36,443 bases of DNA from Limisphaerales bacterium. GTDB taxonomy: Bacteria; Verrucomicrobiota; Verrucomicrobiia; Limisphaerales; SIBE01. Under the pieces are notes generated by a model. That model did no database searches. It worked only from the letters and a program-made list of their open reading frames with translations, and had not been told where the DNA came from. This document shows, one piece after another, positions 22,041 through 36,443 of the stretch; within the stretch, counting starts at the first letter, position 1, and each line of letters starts with the position of its first letter. The DNA lies in contig JBGAIN010000079.1 in NCBI GenBank assembly GCA_044225505.1, positions 1-36,443 on the forward strand, written 5' to 3'. A program made the position numbers and the translations under genes.

Positions 22041-24698
22041 CTACTTTCTAAGTCGGTAAAACTTCTTGGCGAGAGTCAACGAGACATTGAAGGGACTTAC
22101 CGCTGCGGCCACGCTCGTCCAAGGCCCAATGACCGCGTCGGCTTGCTCGAGTGCCCCCTCTGTCCAGCTTAGGCTCACGCTCGAAGCAGATTTTGCGAAG
22201 GCCAAGCGGGGACGCTCTGCGACGCGACCGATTACCTCCAACTCGGTCATTTGCAGCGCGTAGTCCTGAACCGGATTCTCGAGCGACTCAATCCGAACCC
22301 ACTGGCCCTGAAACTGGCCGGATGGATTCAAGTCTTTGGTTAAGGTAACCATTACGCCCTGCCCCACCCCAGGATTACTTCCGTCTGTGTACAGATCAGC
22401 ACTCCAAACCGTGTCACCGATAACACCTCCATTGTCCTTGTGAACGGAAACGCGGAAATTCGTTAGTCGCTCAGGGCAACAGCTATCTTGTCGCGGGTAA
22501 ATGTCGATGTGATCGATGGTGACTAATTCCCCCATATTGACTTCGTAAGCGAAGCCCGGGGCAATCTGGGCGTCGCCGTGAAAGACTCCTTTTCGGTCGC
22601 CATCGACAAGCCAACTGATGGGCCATCCTGCATACAACGGCCGATTCGAACTCGCGGTTCCCCCTCGGGCATAATTATAGTCGAAGACCAGCGTTGCCGC
22701 TTTGCTTTCGACACTCGTTGCCCCTGGGTAAGAGACAACAACGCTGAATTTGGCGTCTTGATCAGCCGAGACGAGGACAGGTGTCGTATACTTGTCGGCG
22801 TTCGCTCCTGGAATCGCCGTCCCATTACGTTTCCATTGATACGTGAGGAGTTTCGGATCGCCATTCACCACGCTGGCGGTGACGCTAAACGTTGCGACCC
22901 GCCCAGGAGCTCCTAAACCATTCGCCGGTTCCGCATTGATCGCAACCTTTGCCTGCGTCTCGAGCAAAGTGCCAAAGACGACAACCTCGCTCATCTGCAG
23001 CGCATAGTTTTGCACGGGATCTTCTAACGATAGAATGCGAATCCATTGTCCCTGAAATGTCCCCGCGGCGTCCAAATCCTTGGTCACTTTGACAACAATT
23101 CCTGGGCCCGAGCCTGGATTCGAACCGTCGGTGAACAGGTCCGTATGCCATACCGCGTCTCCAATGGCACCGCCATTGTCCTTATGGATGGAAACGCGGA
23201 AATTGGTGAGCCGCTCCGGACAGCAGCCATCTTGACGCGGATAAATCTCGATCGAATCGAAATTCACCGGTGATCGCAAATTGATGTCATAGGCGAAACC
23301 CACCGCGAGATCCGTATTGCCGTGCAGGACGTTAGCTAGATCCCCGTCGACCACCCAAGTGATCGGCCAACCAGCATACAAATCGCGATTCGAAAACGCC
23401 AGAGCGCCCAGCGCATAGTCGATTTTCAACCCGGCCTCTTTTGATGTCACCGGAGCCACTCCGGGATAGGAGGCGATAACTCGGTATTTGTTGTTTGCGT
23501 CGGAGAGCGTGATGGCCGCGGTCGTGAACGTGGCATTGGTTGCGCCGGGCAGATCGACGCCATTAAGTTGCCATTGATAGCTCAAGCGCGCGTTGTCGCC
23601 ATTGATCAAGTTCACCGTCGCGGAATACTTGGCATTCCCGCCCAACCCGACCAAGGCAGAACGTGGATCTTGTGTCAGAACGAGCTTAGTCCCCGCCTCC
23701 GGAACCCCAAACGCCTCGAGTTCGGAAATCTGCAAGGCGTAACTTGAGATAGGGTTTTCCAAGCTGGCAACTCGAATCCACTGTCCTTTGAACTGTCCTG
23801 CTGGATTCAGCGCCGCCTGGATGACATCTTTGGCGCCAGGTTCTGACCCCGGATTGCTCGCATCCGTGTGCAGATCCGCCGTCCACACGGCGTCACCAAT
23901 TGCCCCATTGTTATCCTTATGAATCGATAGCCGATAATTCGTGAGCCGTTCCGCACAGCACCCGTCTTGTCGGGCGATCACATTGATATGATCGAAGGTC
24001 ACCGCGGTTCCGAGATCAATCTCGTAGGAAAATCCTGGATCAATCGTTTCGGTTCCATGGATAAACGAGCCTCGGTCGCCGTCTACCAAAGCACCCGGGA
24101 CTTGCGTCCCAAAGAGCGAACCTTTAACCGCCACACGAGCACCGGCAGCGCGGTTTACTTGCTCCGGCAGCACCGTTGCCAAGACCTCTAGCTCGGTCAT
24201 CTGCAAGGCATAGGCTGGCACGGGATCGGCCAGGGCTAAAACGCGGACCCATCGCGCCGTCTGAGCTGCGGGAAGCGTCACGATCACCAACGAACCAGCG
24301 CTCGATCCGGCGTTCGTCCCATCCGTAAATTTATCTGTCCCCCAGACTTCCGTTCCAATCTTCCCGGTTCCATCGTCATTGTGAACGGAAACATGTATCT
24401 TGCTGAGTCGCTCTGGACAACAGCCGTCCTGGCGCGGATAGATTCGCAGTTCCGTAATCTCATACGGCTTTCCCAAATCGACGGAATAAGCAAACCCTGC
24501 GTCTAGAGTAGCGTCGCCGTGGAAAACGCCACTGCGATCGCCGTCGATCAGTTTCTTAATGTCCCAATTGCCTGGGCCCCAGAGCGGGCCGCTGGCGAAG
24601 GCGGTACCGTTGGGAGCTACATTCGCGGTTTCGGCCATACCGCTAAGTTGGAGCATGCCTGCCGATGCAAGAGCGAGGAGAGTTGCGATATTACGCAT
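22041..24698 (-). CDS. Secreted multidomain protein: 4 F-type lectin (fucolectin/discoidin-fold) domains, 2 Ig-like domains, C-terminal FYRL-type tail
   Basis: Signal peptide from ATG 24698. Four repeats with hhDGD, H-x28-RQD(G/S)CC(P/A)ERL and LQxxExE; two YQW..NG..(L/I)PGA Ig-like segments. Confidence 0.88.
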   Translation of the reverse strand: MRNIATLLALASAGMLQLSGMAETANVAPNGTAFASGPLWGPGNWDIKKLIDGDRSGVFHGDATLDAGFAYSVDLGKPYEITELRIYPRQDGCCPERLSKIHVSVHNDDGTGKIGTEVWGTDKFTDGTNAGSSAGSLVIVTLPAAQTARWVRVLALADPVPAYALQMTELEVLATVLPEQVNRAAGARVAVKGSLFGTQVPGALVDGDRGSFIHGTETIDPGFSYEIDLGTAVTFDHINVIARQDGCCAERLTNYRLSIHKDNNGAIGDAVWTADLHTDASNPGSEPGAKDVIQAALNPAGQFKGQWIRVASLENPISSYALQISELEAFGVPEAGTKLVLTQDPRSALVGLGGNAKYSATVNLINGDNARLSYQWQLNGVDLPGATNATFTTAAITLSDANNKYRVIASYPGVAPVTSKEAGLKIDYALGALAFSNRDLYAGWPITWVVDGDLANVLHGNTDLAVGFAYDINLRSPVNFDSIEIYPRQDGCCPERLTNFRVSIHKDNGGAIGDAVWHTDLFTDGSNPGSGPGIVVKVTKDLDAAGTFQGQWIRILSLEDPVQNYALQMSEVVVFGTLLETQAKVAINAEPANGLGAPGRVATFSVTASVVNGDPKLLTYQWKRNGTAIPGANADKYTTPVLVSADQDAKFSVVVSYPGATSVESKAATLVFDYNYARGGTASSNRPLYAGWPISWLVDGDRKGVFHGDAQIAPGFAYEVNMGELVTIDHIDIYPRQDSCCPERLTNFRVSVHKDNGGVIGDTVWSADLYTDGSNPGVGQGVMVTLTKDLNPSGQFQGQWVRIESLENPVQDYALQMTELEVIGRVAERPRLAFAKSASSVSLSWTEGALEQADAVIGPWTSVAAAVSPFNVSLTLAKKFYRLRK

Positions 24699-24934
24699 AG
24701 AATCCAAGGTCGAATAAACGTTAAGGTCGCCTTTCGAGTCTCAAATCCAACCCCATGGAAAACGAGACTCGCGGATACGTCGGTGAACTGGTTGAAGCGG
24801 ATTTAAGAGACCAAAATCGTGGTTGGCAAGATGAATCACTCTGCCACCAGTAACCGAAGATAATCAGAGTGGCAAATTGTTGCCCGCTTTTCGAATAAGC
24901 GCGGCCACACCGAATCCTACGGCCGGGCCGATGC

Positions 24935-27900
24935 TCAACGTCGAGGCGCTTTGCGGGCGAAGGTCCGGGCGCCAACCCAGCGGGTATTGTATTTCTTCAT
25001 CCACCAGGTTCGCTCCTCGGAGACGGCGAGCGTCTCGGCGTAGCGCTGGTCGTCCATGCCGTGAAATGGCATTGGCTCCACAGTCGTCCCGGCAAGCACA
25101 TGAAAATCGGCGTCCTTGTCCCATCCGACAGAATACAGGAAGTAATCGCGGACATACCCAGCGGGCTTTGGCGGGAGAGTTTTAATGGCGAAAGACAAGG
25201 TCAACTCGTCACCGCCGTTCAGCAGAACCAAGGCATCGTCGCTCTTCGCAACCAGTTCATCGACCGATCCGTAGCGAGTACACCAGCCTTCCGGAGTAAT
25301 CAACCATCGGGGCTGGGAATAGCTTCTGCGATAGTCCGGCGTTAACGGCTCATACCAAGGGCGGTCCTCAAATTCGCTGAATCCACGCCAATGCAAATCA
25401 GTGCCGGTGGGCGCGATGAATTTCGTCAGCGCCGTTGTTTGATCTCCACGGTCGAACAGCGCAATGCGATCCCAGTGGATTTCAAACGCCGCGGTGAGCC
25501 GGAGTCGCTGGGCACCGACCGGGAGTTTGCCTAGCAGATCCACCAAAATCGTTTTTGTTTTGCCGGCGGGAGCGCCCACCTGCACGTCGACTTTGTGCCA
25601 CTGTCCATCCGCTGTCTCCACTTCCAGCGTTGGAAAGGGAAATGGCAAATTCGGATCGTGCGATGCCGCGATATTCGCCGTTCCACCGCCAAAGCGGAGC
25701 CACCCGGTCAGCGCCAGGACGAGCGGACGATCCAAAGCGAGCGACCCAAAATCGAGCGTGACACCATGCGGCTCGGCCAAGCCGCGCAACTGGGGGACGC
25801 GCAGTTTCTGAGGGGAAAGTAATCTGCCATCCGTCTCTCGAACCAAGTCCGTCACATCCAAGCCGTCCAATCGACTTGCCTGACGGAGGGGATAGCGATT
25901 CGCCAAAAGGCGGAGTTCACTTGGTGGGAAGGGTTTTCCGGGAAGCAGTCGATCGGTGGAATGCACCTCGGTCGTCGCTGGATGGTCGACGACCACCAAC
26001 TTGGCTTCGTCCAGATAGAGAACCTCCCTCAACTCTTCCGTGATTTGAAGTTCAATGTGATCGCCGCGCGGCTGAACCATGCCGTCGTTCCCGAGCCAAA
26101 CGAGTTCATCGGGGTCCGCTTCGATCATCCGCCCCTCAGCGACGGGAAGCCCGGCAGGAGATGCGCCCAAGATGTCGGTGACAAATCGAAAGCGCTGTCC
26201 ATCCCAAGTGTACAGATATGGGCACGACCCAGTCGGCAAGAGCAACTCGAGCATGACCAAGGGAGAGCGGGAATCGACTGGCACTTCCGCCGACGGTGCC
26301 GCCACGTCCACCCAATGAATATTGATGGCATCCACCTGCTTCCTCGGGCCGACACCAATTTCAATCGGCAATTCGGAAACCGTGCGAATCGTGCGCCACT
26401 TCCCAGCGGTCACTTCCACACGCACGCCCAACCCGCTGAAATTCGAGCGGTTTCCGACGAGGCGCAGCTTGAGTTGTTGATTGGCATTGCCTCCTTCGTT
26501 GCGCAGCAATTGCAGGCCACGAGCGCCGAGGCTCGCTAGGAAATCGGTGTCTCCATCGTTATCAAAATCCGCGAACACGACTTGATCGACCGTGCCAGAA
26601 ACCAGCTTGTCCAACCCCAATTCAGACGTCATCTCCTTGAATCCCGCTTGCCCGAGATTTCGCCAGACGCGAATCCCATTGCCCCGAGCGCAAATATCCA
26701 GCCACCCATCGTTATCATAATCGACCAAGCTCAACCCACTCACCGCGAAACCACCTGTCGTTAAGGTCAGTGAGTTGGTAATACCGCCAAACCGACATTC
26801 CAAGCCCCGGTCAGTGGCAATGACGACGTCGGTCCGCAAGTCATTGTTGAGATCGCCCATGGCCGCCGCCGTCCCGGCACTCCAATTGGCCGGTGAATTG
26901 GAGCTGGTCAACGTCCCCCCGCGCTGTTTGAGCAGGAGTAACGGGGATTGTCCCTGGCGCACGACCAATAAGTCCATGATGTCGTCGTTATTCCAGTCAT
27001 CGACAATCAATTGCTGGGCGCTCGTCACGGAAGCGGGAACTCCCGAAGTGGCTGTGGTGTCCTTGAAATACATGTTCCCAAGGTTTCGCAGAACGCGGAC
27101 TGTATTCGTCTGCGGCGTCACCAGCAGCAAGTCCAGCTTGCCGGTGAAGTCCAGGTCAACGAGCGCTCCATCGATTCCCGGACAATCCTTCAAGTTCGAA
27201 AAAGCCGTCGCCTCGGTCGCAGCCCCGTTGGTTGCAAATCTAAAGGCTTGCAGGCCCTTATCCCCGACCACGATGACATCTTCGAAACGGTCGTTGTTCA
27301 AGTCCCCCACCAGACAGCGCGAATAGTGTGCGCCCGGCACCGCGGGCAACAAATCCCCTTCCACTTGGAAGGTTGAATTGCTGTTGATCAGCAATCGAAA
27401 TCCGGCATCGCCCTCCGCGACGAAGATGTCGTTTGAGCCTCGATGGTTCACGTCGAGAATGCCAATCGGACCGCGGAACGTCGACGCGCCCTCGCCAAAA
27501 AAACTCCGAGTTGAGTCGGTGAAGCGAACAGAAACGCCGTTGGCTGGAGGTTGCTCGATATCGAACGGCACATGCACTTGGGTATAAACGCAGCGTTCCA
27601 GCGCGGTCACATCCGCGGAATAGTTCGGACGCGCCGCGATCAACTTTTGATACTCGGTCAGGATTTCATTCGCCTGGTCGGTTTGGCCGAGTCGAACTAG
27701 CACCTGGCCGAGGCTATAATGCGAGGCGAGGTAAAGCGGAGCGCTATGATCTTCAAATTGGATCACCTCACGAAATTGTTCGGCAGCTTCATCGAGCTTA
27801 TTCCATCCTTGGAACGCCCGGCCCAATTGAAAGCTAACCGCATTCACCTTCGGGTCGATCTCCTTGCAGACCTGAAGCTCCTGGACAGCTTGTTCGAACT

Positions 27901-28267
27901 GGCTAAGCCGGAGATACGCACAACCCAAAATGTAGTGAGCCGCTGCCGAACCCGGGTCCAGTTGCAGAACTTCTCGAGCTTTCGCCGCCGCTTCTTCAGA
28001 ACGTCCCGCCAGGAGCAATGCATTGGCTACGTTCACCTGGAGGTCAAGCTGGACCGGATCCAAGGCAGATGCTTTGGTAAACGTCTCCAGCGCCTTTAGA
28101 GCATTCCCTGGTCATAGTAGTTCTTGCCAACATTCAGAAGGCGCGTGAACTGGTCAGGCACGCGGGCGAACTTGCCAGTAGCCGAAAAGGAATGCGACAG
28201 CCACCGCGGCAAGAATCGCCGCAAAATAACAGAGTGTCCGCGAAGTCGATGAACGCGAGGGGCTCAA
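24935..28267 (-). CDS. TPR + FG-GAP/VCBS + ASPIC/UnbV (CRTAC1-like) protein; 5' end interrupted by two compensating indels
   Basis: Main ORF 24935-28063 has TPRs, DxDNDGxxD Ca loops, GVRVEV ASPIC segment and GSCPYLY. An in-frame TTG at 28267 gives an N-terminal hydrophobic anchor. Confidence 0.85.
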
Positions 28268-31855: not shown

Positions 31856-32530
31856 CTATTCCGGAACTTTCAACAACTCGTCCGACGTCCACTGGCTGCT
31901 GCGCGACGCCGTTTCCGCACGAACGGCTTTGACCTGCTCCGGTGTGATTGCCGGAGCTTTATTGCCCCACGCCTGACGGACGTAACTTAGCACAGCGGCC
32001 AGGTTCTCGTCATCGCTGAGCGGCGGTCCGCCGCCAAACGCCGGCATCTGGACACCCGTCCAAACCTGCCCTTTGACCTGGATATTCCCGGTCAGCCCAT
32101 GCAATGGAATACGAATCAACCGATTTGGAGAGCCTAGAACCCACTCGGACCCGACCAACGGTGGAAATTGACCAGGCGCCCCAAGCCCGCTTTGCTGGTG
32201 GCAAGCTGCACAGATCAAAGCGTAAACCGATTCGCCTTTGGCGACCAACATTTCCGAGCCCGATTTTGGCTGAAGATCCGAAAGTTCCTTGAACGATCGG
32301 TATGGACCGTAAACCCGATTGTTGAATCCACCGCCGTACCGGTCGAGATGGAGCATCCCCCAGTAAACGAGCGCAATCATCAGAACGAACAGCCAAGCGG
32401 GCATTGCTGCCGAATCCACTTGCGGCTCGATTTCGTCGATCGATGCCAAAGACTTTGCCTGCACCACCGAGGTCGGAGCGGGTGCAGCGCCATTGCCACC
32501 GGGACGTTTGTTGTCAGGTTTCTGCTTCAT
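31856..32530 (-). CDS. Membrane-anchored monoheme cytochrome c
   Basis: One TM helix, CAACH, FPPL, distal Met in MPAF, AAVLSYVR..WGN. ATGA overlap with the ccoO-like stop. Confidence 0.92.
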   Translation of the reverse strand: MKQKPDNKRPGGNGAAPAPTSVVQAKSLASIDEIEPQVDSAAMPAWLFVLMIALVYWGMLHLDRYGGGFNNRVYGPYRSFKELSDLQPKSGSEMLVAKGESVYALICAACHQQSGLGAPGQFPPLVGSEWVLGSPNRLIRIPLHGLTGNIQVKGQVWTGVQMPAFGGGPPLSDDENLAAVLSYVRQAWGNKAPAITPEQVKAVRAETASRSSQWTSDELLKVPE

Positions 32531-33473
32531 GGCGGCCCCCCAGGACTGGCAGCTGGGCCGTTCGTAACCGTTGATACCGTATTTGTGTCAGCCGCCGGGC
32601 CATTGGTCGTCGAGGAAGATGATACCAACGGCGGAGCTGGCGCCTCAAACAGGGGCATTTCAGCACGCAAACTCAAAAGGTAGGCCACGAGTGCCCGGGC
32701 CTCCCGGGTGGGGATCACTTCGCGGTCCCCCGAGATCGGCAGCGCCTCTGAACTCGGACGGGAACCGCGCGGTTTGATCGTAAAAAGGTACGGATATCGA
32801 GGCATGATCGACCCGGCGACCTGCGACTTGGGATCATAAAGATGGAGTAAATGCCAGTTCGCGTCTGGCTTCCGGAGCCCTACGTTGGTCAGGTCAGGTC
32901 CGAGCCGAGCCGAGCCGAGCATTAACGGAGTGGCATATAGGTAATCGCACGCGGGGTGGCATATAGGTAATCGGCACCGACGGACAAGCGGGTTCCCCAT
33001 CCACGCTGAATGTCAGGACCGGTCGGAATGACTCGAATGGCCGCCTCTGCACCCGCCGTGCTTAGGCTCTTCTGGGCTGCGTCAGCAGCCGCTTTCCGGG
33101 TGACTCGCAACACCGTCGCCGGCCGGCTGCTCAAGAGCCGCTCCGCCTCACCGGCGGATAGACCACTCCGGAGTTGCACGATCGCTTCGATCACCGCGGG
33201 CTGATTCGTGCCGGGGTCCGTCACCACGACTGCCAGTTCTGCGCCCTCCTGGCGAATGATCTGGGTGTGGCAATAGGCACATCCGTTCGCACGATAAACT
33301 TCGCGACCGAGCGCTGCGACACCGGGAGTCGCCGTCGGATACAAGACGTTCGTTGGAGGAACATTAGTGGCCTGTTGCCCACCCAACTGCAATTGAGGCG
33401 TAACCACCATGCCTAACCAAGATAAGGCCATGGCCCCAAGCAAACCCAAAAAGATAAAGGGTCCAAACCTCAT
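32527..33473 (-). CDS. ccoO: cbb3-type oxidase subunit II-like cytochrome c (CcoO-like) with L7/L12-like insert; frame broken by a 26-bp duplication
   Basis: GREVY..NGCAYCHTQ in the upstream frame; GS.R.GPDL, WH..HL..P and SIMP.Y in the downstream frame. Removing 26 bp at ~32930-32955 restores a 306-aa ORF. Confidence 0.85.
32930..32973. repeat. Direct repeat GTGGCATATAGGTAATCG x2 (period 26 bp) inside ccoO
   Basis: Copies at 32930-32947 and 32956-32973. Confidence 0.95.
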
Positions 33474-34951
33474 GCCGAACGCCTCCCCGCGCGAACGGGA
33501 GTCGCGCGACTTCCGGCGTTTGACCAAAGCGCACAAACGGGACAACAGGCCATGAGAATTCGCAGAAGCTGAACAAAAAAGATAACGTACGCCACGAGCA
33601 AGAGCAGTACCCCGAGAGAGTTAATCCCAAGGAATGGCACGGTTCGGCGGACGACCTGGACAAAGTCGATTCCAGGATCGTTGATACCCGTGCCCTGGAG
33701 CAAGCCTCCCACGAGCAAAGCGATCCCACTCGCCGCAGTCCCCACGGTGGCCATCCAAAAGTGCAACCGGGTCGCTGTAAGACGAGGAAGCTCTGGGCAT
33801 CCCGCCACTTTCGGAGCCACATAGTAAACTGCTCCGGCCAGCGCCATGGCCAAAAACCCATGCAACCGAAGTTGCGTGACGCCTTCATTGTAAATCGTAA
33901 AAGAGGTCAACTGGCTTACTGCTGGGTGGGACGCAGCCGCTGCCAACAGAGCGACCGCAACATAAACAACGGCAGCCATCAGCGTGAACCGGAGCGTCGG
34001 GTCTGCTTTTTGCAGCGACCCAGCCTGCGCCGTCTGGAACCAACTCAAGCCAAAGGCGAAGATCGGCAAAAGCAAGATTACCCGCGCCACCACCCCAACA
34101 CTACCCATCCAATTCGGAACGGGCTCCCCGACGCGCACTCCTCCCCAACCGCCAAGCAGCACGAAGAACCAAAACCCGAACAGAATCAAACCGCGACTGT
34201 ATAATGGTCGTCCCGTTAGTTTTGGCAGGAAATAGAAGATCGAGGCCAACCCGAACGAGGACGCCGCGACTTCAAAGAGATTGTGAGCATACCATCCATT
34301 AACGACCGCTTGCATGACCCCTCGAACCGGTGCCATGACCAAAAGAATCTGTGCGGTCGCATAGATCCACGGAAACCAGAGCAACGCGGCGAGCAGAAAC
34401 CACTGCGAAACGAATAAGTCCCGGTTGTTCCGCCCGTGAAGATTGATCAGAGCCCAAGCCGCCACCAGGAGATAGGCAAGAAACATTACGGGAGATGCCG
34501 TCCTGGGGATTTCCATCCATTCGTAGCCCGTGCTGTCCCCTGCCAAAATCGAAATCAATCCGATCGCCAACCCTAAATTCCAAAGGACTGTTCCAGCCCC
34601 AATGATCCAACCGCCTTGCAGTCGATTACGGCCTAGTCTTGAGGAGATCCAAAGCGCGAGGCCTAATCCCGTCTGAATAACAAAACCGTAGATAAACGCA
34701 TTGCTGCTGAACGGGCGTACCCGGCCGTAAGTCAGCCAGGAAGCTCCTGCGATAAAGCCTGACGCATGATTTTTGATTGCGGTCAGAAGTCCAAACAAAC
34801 CGCTCCAGGCTAGCCAGCAAGCGCCAGCCGCAAAGAGCAATAACACTGGCCAACGGCAGGAACGATCAATCTCCCCCACCGTCAAAGTCGTGACGCCCCC
34901 TGCCGAGGGGGAAACGACTGTCGAGGCCAGAGGTGATGAGGGAGAACTCAT
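33470..34951 (-). CDS. CcoN-like (heme-copper oxidase subunit I fold) protein lacking most metal ligands
   Basis: ~12 TM; YGRVRP, EWME, FVSQW, WYAHN, YFLPK..GRPLYS, YY..P, HFW match CcoN. The helix II His, helix VII HH and helix X HxH are absent. Confidence 0.88.
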   Translation of the reverse strand: MSSPSSPLASTVVSPSAGGVTTLTVGEIDRSCRWPVLLLFAAGACWLAWSGLFGLLTAIKNHASGFIAGASWLTYGRVRPFSSNAFIYGFVIQTGLGLALWISSRLGRNRLQGGWIIGAGTVLWNLGLAIGLISILAGDSTGYEWMEIPRTASPVMFLAYLLVAAWALINLHGRNNRDLFVSQWFLLAALLWFPWIYATAQILLVMAPVRGVMQAVVNGWYAHNLFEVAASSFGLASIFYFLPKLTGRPLYSRGLILFGFWFFVLLGGWGGVRVGEPVPNWMGSVGVVARVILLLPIFAFGLSWFQTAQAGSLQKADPTLRFTLMAAVVYVAVALLAAAASHPAVSQLTSFTIYNEGVTQLRLHGFLAMALAGAVYYVAPKVAGCPELPRLTATRLHFWMATVGTAASGIALLVGGLLQGTGINDPGIDFVQVVRRTVPFLGINSLGVLLLLVAYVIFFVQLLRILMACCPVCALWSNAGSRATPVRAGRRSA

Positions 34952-34980: not shown

Positions 34981-35361
34981 CTATTCAAATGCCGACGGTT
35001 TTTCCGGCTCTTTCGGTGGCGGCGGCGGATTGGCCTTTTCGACGCGCGCCAGCAGATTAGAACGCCCCACTGACGGGTTCTTCCATTCGCGGACGACGAG
35101 ATCCATCGCCCGTGCAATCGGCAATCGGACCAATCCTTTTGTCTGATCTTGCCAGCCGTAGTTATTGAGCGCCTCCGTGCCGGCCGCGTTAATGTCCCGC
35201 AGGTTTTTGATGCGCTCATCTATCCGGGCCTGGTTGACCGTGGCCGGTTGGGTGCGGACGTACAACAGCCAGGCCAAGGCGCCCACAATTAACAGCGCGC
35301 CTAACACGGCCACAAAGTAAACCGCGACAGAAATGATCCTTGATTCAGGTCGAGAGTTCAT
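34981..35361 (-). CDS. Single-TM protein downstream of actF (ActG-like)
   Basis: ATG 35361, N-terminal TM, LNNYGWQD...G.VRLPIARAM motif of the kind seen in small genes following actF, Pro-rich tail. The ActG label rests on position and motif memory. Confidence 0.65.
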   Translation of the reverse strand: MNSRPESRIISVAVYFVAVLGALLIVGALAWLLYVRTQPATVNQARIDERIKNLRDINAAGTEALNNYGWQDQTKGLVRLPIARAMDLVVREWKNPSVGRSNLLARVEKANPPPPPKEPEKPSAFE

Positions 35362-35404: not shown

Positions 35405-36443
35405 TCACTTGCCACCTCCACGTGCCGGCAATGGCTGCGCGGAAGCGCTGACAGGCGGGACATATACTTTCATCGTCTCTGCAAACCGAGGATCTTTCTG
35501 CGGGAATGCCGGATGCGCGGCAAAATAGCGCAAGAAGACCGTGGTCAAAACCCCGCCAATAAAAGCGAGACAAGAAATATCCAGCCAATGCAAAACCCAA
35601 CCGTCTGGATGGAGGACAGGCATGATGTTGAACGATAAATCGGTGAAATGCATCAACCATGCCCAGACAAAAATAAAGCCCATGACCGACAATTTGAGTT
35701 TAAAATCAATCCGCAGCAACAAGAGGAACGGCAAGAAGAAGTGACCAAATATGATCACCAATCCGACATACCACCAACTCCCCTTTTCTCGCACCACATA
35801 CCAGAAGGTTTCCTCTGGCAGATTCGCGTTCCAAATAATGAAATACTGGGAAAAGTGGATATAGGCGTAAAACACCGTAAACGCCAATTGCAGCGATCCC
35901 AGAAAGTAAAACGTCTCCTCGTGCACCACTTCGCGCAACGGGCCAGTCCGCTGCAAAACGAGGGTAATCATGTAAACCGTGGCAATCGTTGTCCAGACGC
36001 TTCCAGCAAAGTAATAAACGCCATACATGGTCGAGAACCATTGGTGCTGCAGCGCTTTCATCCACATGATCGCCGCCAGGGTCAATGTGATCGCGAAGAA
36101 GAACATTCCCACCGCAGACCATTTGCGGAGCTTAAAGGTGCACAGCGCGGCTCCTGTCTCGTCCTGTCGCAGTGACCACGAGCGAAGCTGATAAGAGAAG
36201 AGGGTCCAGACGCCAAAACAAAATGCGGCTACGACATAGAACATCGTCTTCGTAAACAAGGGCTGCTTCGCGTGCAACGCATGGTCCAGGTGCGGATTCA
36301 GATCCATCCAAGGATAAATCGGAATCGCGGGTGCAAGCAGGGCAATGGGAATAAACAGAACGGCCATCACGGGTAGAAGAAACGCCATATGCTCTTCCAA
36401 CCGCCGGATCGCCACTGACCAACTGGCGTCAAACAAATGATGG
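35405..36443 (-). CDS. actF: Alternative complex III subunit ActF (partial, start beyond window)
   Basis: Multi-TM NrfD-like protein with W...IRR..E, WFSTMYG, FSQYFIIWNANLPEET, P..DPR. Confidence 0.9.
   Translation of the reverse strand, partial: HHLFDASWSVAIRRLEEHMAFLLPVMAVLFIPIALLAPAIPIYPWMDLNPHLDHALHAKQPLFTKTMFYVVAAFCFGVWTLFSYQLRSWSLRQDETGAALCTFKLRKWSAVGMFFFAITLTLAAIMWMKALQHQWFSTMYGVYYFAGSVWTTIATVYMITLVLQRTGPLREVVHEETFYFLGSLQLAFTVFYAYIHFSQYFIIWNANLPEETFWYVVREKGSWWYVGLVIIFGHFFLPFLLLLRIDFKLKLSVMGFIFVWAWLMHFTDLSFNIMPVLHPDGWVLHWLDISCLAFIGGVLTTVFLRYFAAHPAFPQKDPRFAETMKVYVPPVSASAQPLPARGGGK

Follow-up and report, generated by a model that had tools for sequence, protein, structure and literature searches.

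The cbb3-type oxidases contain a CcoO/FixO subunit (PF02433; 3MK7, 8SMR) with a membrane anchor, a CxxCH heme motif, a GPDL motif, and an axial Met, and their genes follow the order ccoN-ccoO-cytochrome c. In Verrucomicrobiota, alternative complex III (ACIII) genes lie directly upstream of C-type oxidase genes (PMC8498564); the accessible part of that report mentions neither a subunit I lacking histidines nor an insert in CcoO. In contrast to the cluster described there, the version that we find in Limisphaerales (Verrucomicrobia subdivision 3) has a mostly His-less subunit I and an insert in about half of the CcoO copies. In the open-access literature, we found no description of L12 together with CcoO, of an L12 domain insertion, or of an exported non-ribosomal L12, and none of a verrucomicrobial sequon, a His-less CcoN with ACIII, or this loop position in CcoO.

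We analyzed a window of 36,443 nucleotides from a Limisphaerales bacterium, in which an original prediction had placed a domain resembling the C-terminal domain (CTD) of ribosomal protein bL12 (L7/L12) inside a CcoO-like cytochrome. The folds of bL12 and of the ClpS adaptor are both protein-binding folds. Residues K65, K70, R73, and K84 of bL12 bind translation GTPases, a role for which our open-access literature search returned no paper. The N-degron pocket of ClpS holds acidic and His residues. The locus is a clear-cut natural example of a ribosomal domain within a respiratory cytochrome fold. On balance, we consider it most likely that the insert was captured and now forms a dispensable appendage at the surface of the cytochrome, which would belong to a relay attached to ACIII and built around a dead cbb3 scaffold.

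A bL12-like domain in the heme domain of a CcoO-like protein

The insert comprises 73 amino acids, A78-P150 of the CcoO-like protein (33024..33242, minus strand), as defined by Pfam, phmmer against the PDB, a homolog model, and an indel. It splits the loop that directly follows the heme motif. The spacing from this motif to GPDL is 118 residues in the insert-bearing form and 45 in insert-free relatives, a clean indel; thus, the true size of the insert is 73 amino acids. The stretch initially assigned to the domain, 33033-33239, corresponds to residues E79-R147 in the translation of the minus-strand ORF 33473->32922. Its placement directly behind the heme motif segment was right as to location, except that three residues, EGA (76-78), intervene.

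Against Pfam PF00542, the insert scored 32.1 bits alone and 29.1 within the ORF (cut-off, 25.9), and its best phmmer match in the PDB was the CTD of Escherichia coli L7/L12 (1ctf, E 8.8e-6). A profile of 26 inserts aligned with the genome's own bL12 CTD at 98.5% in hhalign, and 19 of these 26 matched PF00542 singly (E<=0.01). The bL12 dimerisation domain (PF16320) had no match in the insert-bearing protein, which also lacks the hinge, and the full-length bL12 profile TIGR00855 gave 32.4 against a cut-off of 84.4. The true rplL lies on a separate contig of the same genome (G000:C221). ClpS was not matched in Pfam by the window insert at E<=1, nor by the 26 inserts at E<=0.01. Judged by these profiles, the insert belongs to PF00542 at the level of the domain, but is neither a ribosomal protein nor ClpS. 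A PF00542 match is therefore not in itself evidence of rplL.

The fold was examined in an AlphaFold2 model of a same-genus homolog (G002), built from a 22-sequence alignment and not representing the window protein itself. Here, the insert was predicted at pLDDT ~90 as strand-helix-helix-strand-helix-strand, the topology of bL12, while the CcoO core was poorly resolved (pLDDT <50 at 66-75 and 158-184). Foldseek superposed the modeled insert on 1ctf with an rmsd of 1.1 Å over 68 columns and on 8yeq with 1.8 Å. VIA-align likewise ranked bL12 first (8yeq, Z 12.7, rmsd 1.8, 72 aligned), followed by ClpS (7d34, 9ayn, and 3o2o; Z 9.0-10.0, rmsd 2.2-2.7 Å). Both the Pfam score and the model thus bear out an L7/L12 CTD-like domain within the CcoO heme c domain. 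As to the proposed ClpS-related ribosomal fold, the bL12 fold held, but the likeness to ClpS was weaker, with 11-18% identity and no sequence-family match. The N-degron pocket residues of ClpS are not evident in the insert consensus, which has no conserved Asp or His. A weak structural likeness to a subdomain of Bacillus subtilis PBP3 (Z 6.9) was rejected, as it fell within the background.

The insert shares with the bL12 CTD (PF00542; 1ctf, 8yeq) essentially the full 67-position family model (positions 2-66), a fold within 1.1-1.8 Å rmsd in the homolog model, and the core and turn residues. It differs from it in being internal to a presumably periplasmic cytochrome, without the N-terminal dimerisation domain or hinge, in lacking the basic factor-binding positions, and in having a new T-N motif. 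The alignment with the order's own bL12 is ungapped, including a helix1-helix2 link one residue longer, while that with the E. coli protein needs a gap. A G-A-K turn is also common to both, with K in 17/18 native bL12 and in 65/80 inserts from the best 80 of 293 loci. The link and the turn point to the native rplL of the order as the probable donor.

The host gene and its operon

The ccoO-like gene (32527..33473, minus strand) was read across a 26-bp artefact and has FixO matches on both halves. It encodes an N-terminal membrane helix, CxxCH (C65, C68, H69), the insert, GPDL, the axial Met, and a Thr-Asn-rich low-complexity tail; the second half scored 61 against PF02433 (cut-off, 29.6). The anchor, the motifs, and the position downstream of ccoN are those of CcoO/FixO in cbb3 oxidases, whereas the 73-amino acid insert and the T-N-rich linker and tail set the protein apart. 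Against TIGR00781, the G002 homolog reached 64.5, far below the cut-off of 200.65. The single N-terminal membrane helix and the c-type heme motif support the periplasmic location that had been proposed for the insert.

In the window, a 26-bp duplicated segment (~32930..32955; a direct repeat with a spacing of 26) shifts the reading frame of ccoO 70 bp beyond the insert and leads to an early stop. Such a lesion could point to an assembly chimera or a pseudogene. However, the 26 bp were missing from the contigs of 4/4 runs (4 studies), and in two of these runs a single contig covers the entire region, with the insert but without the duplication. Thus, the gene is intact in nature, with GPDL and the axial Met in frame, and true pseudogenisation was rejected. 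Together with the intact insert-bearing genes of 29 relatives and the inserts in the best 80 of 293 loci, the independent runs refute the chimera explanation, to which we assign a negligible probability.

The neighboring CcoN-like subunit I (33470..34951, minus strand) matched COX1 with 120 bits and TIGR00780 with 124 (cut-off, 583). Compared to the canonical CcoN of the same genome, it retains one of the six heme/CuB histidines (only the H207 equivalent), a count accurate to plus or minus one owing to gaps in the alignment around the CuB pair, and its cross-link Tyr is replaced. In contrast to the cbb3 oxidases, the CcoN partner thus lacks the ligands of heme b, heme b3, and CuB. By its residues, it is a pseudo-oxidase scaffold, and the complex does not qualify as a working cbb3 oxidase. 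The gene pair is nonetheless annotated as a cbb3 oxidase, which affects inferences on microaerobic respiration in an order widespread in soil, peat, and sludge.

The remaining genes of the cluster are encoded on the same strand. A membrane-anchored monoheme cytochrome c in a CcoP-like position (31856..32530) is a conserved downstream neighbor and matched Cytochrom_C and Cytochrome_CBB3 over cut-off. A conserved small membrane protein (34981..35361), with no family match over cut-off, lies between the ccoN-like gene and the 3' part of actF (35405..36443), the sixth ACIII gene, assigned by position and without a family match. In relatives, the conserved cluster consists of six ACIII genes, the small membrane protein, the CcoN-like and ccoO-like genes, and the monoheme cytochrome c. 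The upstream genes of G002 match the ActD, NrfD, c7, and 4Fe-4S families; ActD is the only named match, and we assume the labels actA-C, E, and F from the established gene order. Elsewhere, the genome encodes a canonical fused ccoNO and, as read from their sequences, a probable A-type subunit I and a qNOR-like protein. The window also contains, at 22041-24707 and 24935-28063, what reads as a large, exported protein composed of discoidin-like and Ig-like repeats, adjoining a putative TPR and FG-GAP (CRTAC1-like) protein.

Distribution of the insert

Among 60 Limisphaerales relatives, the locus was recovered from 52, and after one non-CcoO match and one truncated gene were dropped, 54 ccoO copies could be scored. 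The insert was present in 29 and lacking in 25. All 29 insert-bearing copies adjoin a CcoN with <=2 His, while the insert-free copies comprise 21 with a His-less CcoN, 3 with all six His, and 1 without CcoN on the contig. A genome-wide scan confirmed 293 loci, of which the best 80 (68 of them new) were chosen by score and are hence biased to inserts; all 80 carry it, and 71/71 scorable CcoN have 0-1 His. The anticipated co-occurrence of the insert with His-less CcoN is therefore found, but it is one-way: a His-less CcoN needs no insert, which was lacking in 21/50 of the His-less systems scored.

Outside the order, we sampled 300 genomes across the remaining phylum; 78 matched, and none of the matches listed spans the insert. 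None of 20 outside-order loci carried it; 13 have six His and 7 (L152, L154, L158, L159, L161, L163, and L167) lack them. Thus, the pseudo-oxidase is wider than the insert. Word-seeded protein searches returned only 4 and 3 close relatives, too few for mapping the distribution.

This pattern bears on the proposal that the insert is a specific docking module. Its partner would be ActE, ActA, the downstream cytochrome c, or a terminal oxidase, and the contact would serve to route electrons out of ACIII now that CcoN can no longer accept them. The restriction of the insert to His-less systems, with none in 3 in-order and 13 outside-order His-intact systems, is in line with such a function. The 21 His-less systems in the order and the 7 outside it that do without an insert argue against it, and we consider this role unlikely.

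Trees were built from 52 rows, leaving out G005, G021, G027b, and G044b, and in addition G042 for CcoN and the window for CcoO. Presence or absence of the insert required 8 changes on the concatenated tree and 12 on each single-gene tree. A single clade of insert-bearers was rejected by the AU test (p 0.007 for the CcoO core, 6e-56 for CcoN), and well-supported sisters differ in the insert (G008/G003 in both the CcoO and CcoN trees, G049/G020 in the CcoN tree). Many insert-free forms retain an ancestral-looking loop, a feature that makes recombinational exchange no less plausible than deletion and that suggests recombination over a simple deletion.

A cultured strain, Limisphaera sp. VF-2 (locus L290), likewise carries the insert, and its CcoN at this locus has 0/6 His. 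Together with the sister lineages with and without the insert, this strain makes its role testable. In the 2026 description of Limisphaera (PMC13608581), CcoN and CcoO are listed for the cbb3 oxidase as a pair of separate proteins; this pair probably corresponds to the genes of the VF-2 locus.

Constraint and plasticity of the insert

In an alignment to the genome's own bL12, the equivalents of K65, K70, R73, and K84 are Q91, E96, V99, and E111, which confirms the loss of the basic factor-binding residues noted earlier. No insert from the best 80 of 293 loci keeps all four basic positions, and each of them is basic in only 8-11 of these 80, as compared to 18/18 native CTDs. At window position 33186, residue 96 (the K70 equivalent) is Asp in three other assemblies; the difference may be either a strain variant or an error of the window.

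These substitutions weigh on the idea that the domain retains bL12 or ClpS biochemistry, that is, binding of translation factors or N-degrons. The fold does match both proteins. However, the basic positions are gone, translation GTPases are absent from the periplasmic side, the dimerisation domain is missing, and rplL is encoded elsewhere; for ClpS, the acidic and His pocket residues have no conserved counterpart in the insert consensus. This explanation is already largely refuted, and we regard it as very improbable.

Across 20 sequences, the mean identity was 29% for the insert versus 62-64% for the flanking heme core. Inserts are as similar to one another (0.30) as to native bL12 (0.31); thus, no new conserved surface arose. 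In the single unsaturated pair, dN was 0.025 and dS 0.177; the remaining pairs were saturated, and a family-level genome search added no new genomes. By these measures, the insert is under purifying selection, yet about twice as variable as the core. Its length ranges over 57-100 amino acids in the best 80 of 293 loci, and three inserts (L069, L078, and L092) contain nested additions of 60-150 amino acids, giving totals of 137, 169, and 224. In some loci, helix 2 is deleted or broken up by such additions, and the CcoO of G361 (L115:235-1545) carries two bL12 domains in tandem. In a scan of eight operon partners, no column of ActA-F, the small ORF, or cytochrome c co-varied significantly with the insert after correction (best p 2.4e-4 among 599 tests). 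As far as the sequences indicate, the insert behaves as a domain whose fold is maintained but which is not tied to a particular partner.

The original designation as a docking module thus finds little backing here: no conserved surface patch, no co-varying operon partner, and a helix 2 that can be lost or interrupted all speak against it. In its favor, bL12 and ClpS are protein-binding folds, and G-T-N, P, and G-A-K should, from the strand order, come together at the tip distal to the cytochrome. In ClpS, peptides bind at the tip corresponding to these conserved insert residues.

We regard the captured appendage as somewhat more likely than not. In a single event in Limisphaerales, the CTD part of the lineage's own rplL would have entered, in frame, a surface loop of the CcoO heme domain; the CcoN of these systems would by then have lost its hemes and copper. 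As the first and last strands of the insert pair, placing its termini side by side, a two-strand stalk would connect the domain with the cytochrome and leave heme binding undisturbed. Selection would preserve the fold (hydrophobic core, turn glycines, and helix cap) and not the bL12 surface. The insert may then be a passive and dispensable part of the ACIII-attached electron-relay module, spacing or shielding its periplasmic face, and would be neither an obligatory docking site nor active in translation; CcoO and cytochrome c would relay electrons between ACIII and working terminal oxidases encoded elsewhere. Several observations fit a passive appendage less well. Frame and fold are retained across dozens of families, a persistence that might not be expected of an entirely neutral passenger, and G-T-N is conserved beyond the bL12 pattern. 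Likewise, the ancestral-looking loop of many insert-free forms, the poorly resolved CcoO core of the model, and a dN/dS from one pair count against it.

The Thr-Asn motif

The motif G88-T89-N90 (33204..33212, minus strand) lies in the strand1-helix1 loop and is conserved in inserts but not in the order's bL12, with G, T, and N found in 24, 22, and 24 of 26 inserts, respectively. In these alignments, it is the sole conserved feature of the insert unexplained by bL12. T-N occupies this loop in 60/80 inserts (best 80 of 293 loci) versus 17/366 other L12-type domains and 0/18 native CTDs.

Thr-Asn is also frequent in the rest of CcoO, with 114 per 10,672 residues in the order versus 4 per 3,896 outside; the observed/expected ratio in the CcoO core is 7.1 as compared to 0.97. 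In the CcoO C-tails, Asn is preceded by Thr in 85/123 cases (best 80 of 293 loci) and in 57/72 of the first set (12 loci common to both). The 69-79% in these unalignable periplasmic tails contrasts with 2-9% (1-7 events) for the operon's cytoplasmic tails, and outside-order CcoO tails and linkers have 0 Thr-Asn. In the window, the Thr-Asn-rich tail and linker are located at 32527-32660 and 33350-33380. Within the operon, ActE and ActA likewise show an enrichment of Thr-Asn, as opposed to a depletion in ActB, ActD, and cytochrome c.

One reading of these data, which we hold to be rather unlikely, is that the insert serves as a display pedestal for a Thr-Asn mark, putatively a Thr O-glycosylated by a GT-C/PglL-type transferase. 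It would hold the modified site off the heme face, the same job as that of the Thr-Asn-rich linker and tail of CcoO. The excess at the insert loop, in the C-tails, and in the core supports this reading, as do exported proteins. In the window's genome (G000), T-N is the top non-Cys dipeptide of predicted exported proteins (1.46, CI 1.36-1.57; 1.48 de-replicated; range 1.46-1.52), compared to 1.06 (1.06-1.11) for cytoplasmic ones. The figure for G059 is 2.01, versus 0.83 and 0.98 for the outside-order G240 and G249. These values rest on export classes from a crude hydropathy rule and on related genomes that are not independent, and the Tat-class comparison included 10 proteins only. The genome-wide signal was not confirmed in G055 (0.44, 18 proteins) or G052 (1.29, 9 proteins, CI spanning 1).

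Other evidence weakens the pedestal further. The periplasmic C-tail of the neighboring cytochrome c shows no T-N enrichment (2/28 Asn), Asn already is the helix-cap position in many bL12, and the inserts of the GntP and OPT transporters described below lack G-T-N. Candidate GT-C enzymes over cut-off are present (6 Wzy_C, 2 PMT), but both families also occur in most control genomes. STT3 was found in 1/41 genomes, making classical N-glycosylation unlikely; being absent from the other 40, it was rejected as the enzyme for T-N. A lineage-specific O-glycosylation mark thus stays a putative and doubtful assignment for Thr-Asn. If it were a true modification motif, the enrichment would amount to a new bacterial sequon. 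Equally tentative is the broader scheme in which Limisphaerales would combine a new Thr-Asn modification motif on exported proteins with a rigid rplL-derived bL12 pedestal displaying the site on the dead-cbb3 cytochrome, the same domain being recruited repeatedly into loops of further membrane proteins in the order.

bL12 domains in other proteins

Out of 1.84 billion proteins, 6106 matched the 26-insert profile at E<=0.001. In a ranking that favors multi-copy proteins, the top 149 matches (the window's own excluded) comprised 11 CcoO-type proteins, 42 with a hydrophobic N terminus, suggesting export, and 96 without. PF00542 was found in 110 of 111 proteins scanned and the bL12 dimerisation domain in only 2; partner domains included TIR, kinase, caspase, HSP70, Ig-like, and EF-Tu. 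These uncharacterised non-ribosomal proteins resemble the CcoO case in using the bL12 CTD as a mobile module, with export-like N termini in the 42 top matches. In contrast to it, they are mostly multi-copy, terminal, or linker-joined, whereas CcoO carries one domain within another fold, and they often keep the four basic positions (213/366 domains) that the CcoO insert has lost.

Insertions into other folds were also found. A bL12 domain resides in the loop of a GntP permease in G003 (L112:416-1984) and G011 (L111), in a TPR protein of G375 (L118:154-1554), and, under cut-off but at 88% in hhalign, in the loop of an OPT transporter of G026 (L113:445-2919). The GntP, OPT, and TPR insertions, all within the order, are independent of that in CcoO, in line with the reading of a captured appendage. 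The domains in transporter loops and exported proteins imply that periplasmic use of the fold is not unique to CcoO. The suggested co-option of a ribosomal fold therefore stands as far as non-ribosomal use is concerned, but such use is common among other proteins.

Three of the matched proteins (P0020, P0021, and P0028) have several bL12 CTDs fused to EF-Tu domains 2 and 3 behind signal-peptide-like N termini, and one of them also has a PASTA domain; they would be exported proteins made of translation-factor parts. Last, a small predicted membrane protein of the window's genome (G000:C280:125562-125663) contains a partial bL12-like helical segment with 24 bits, under the cut-off.
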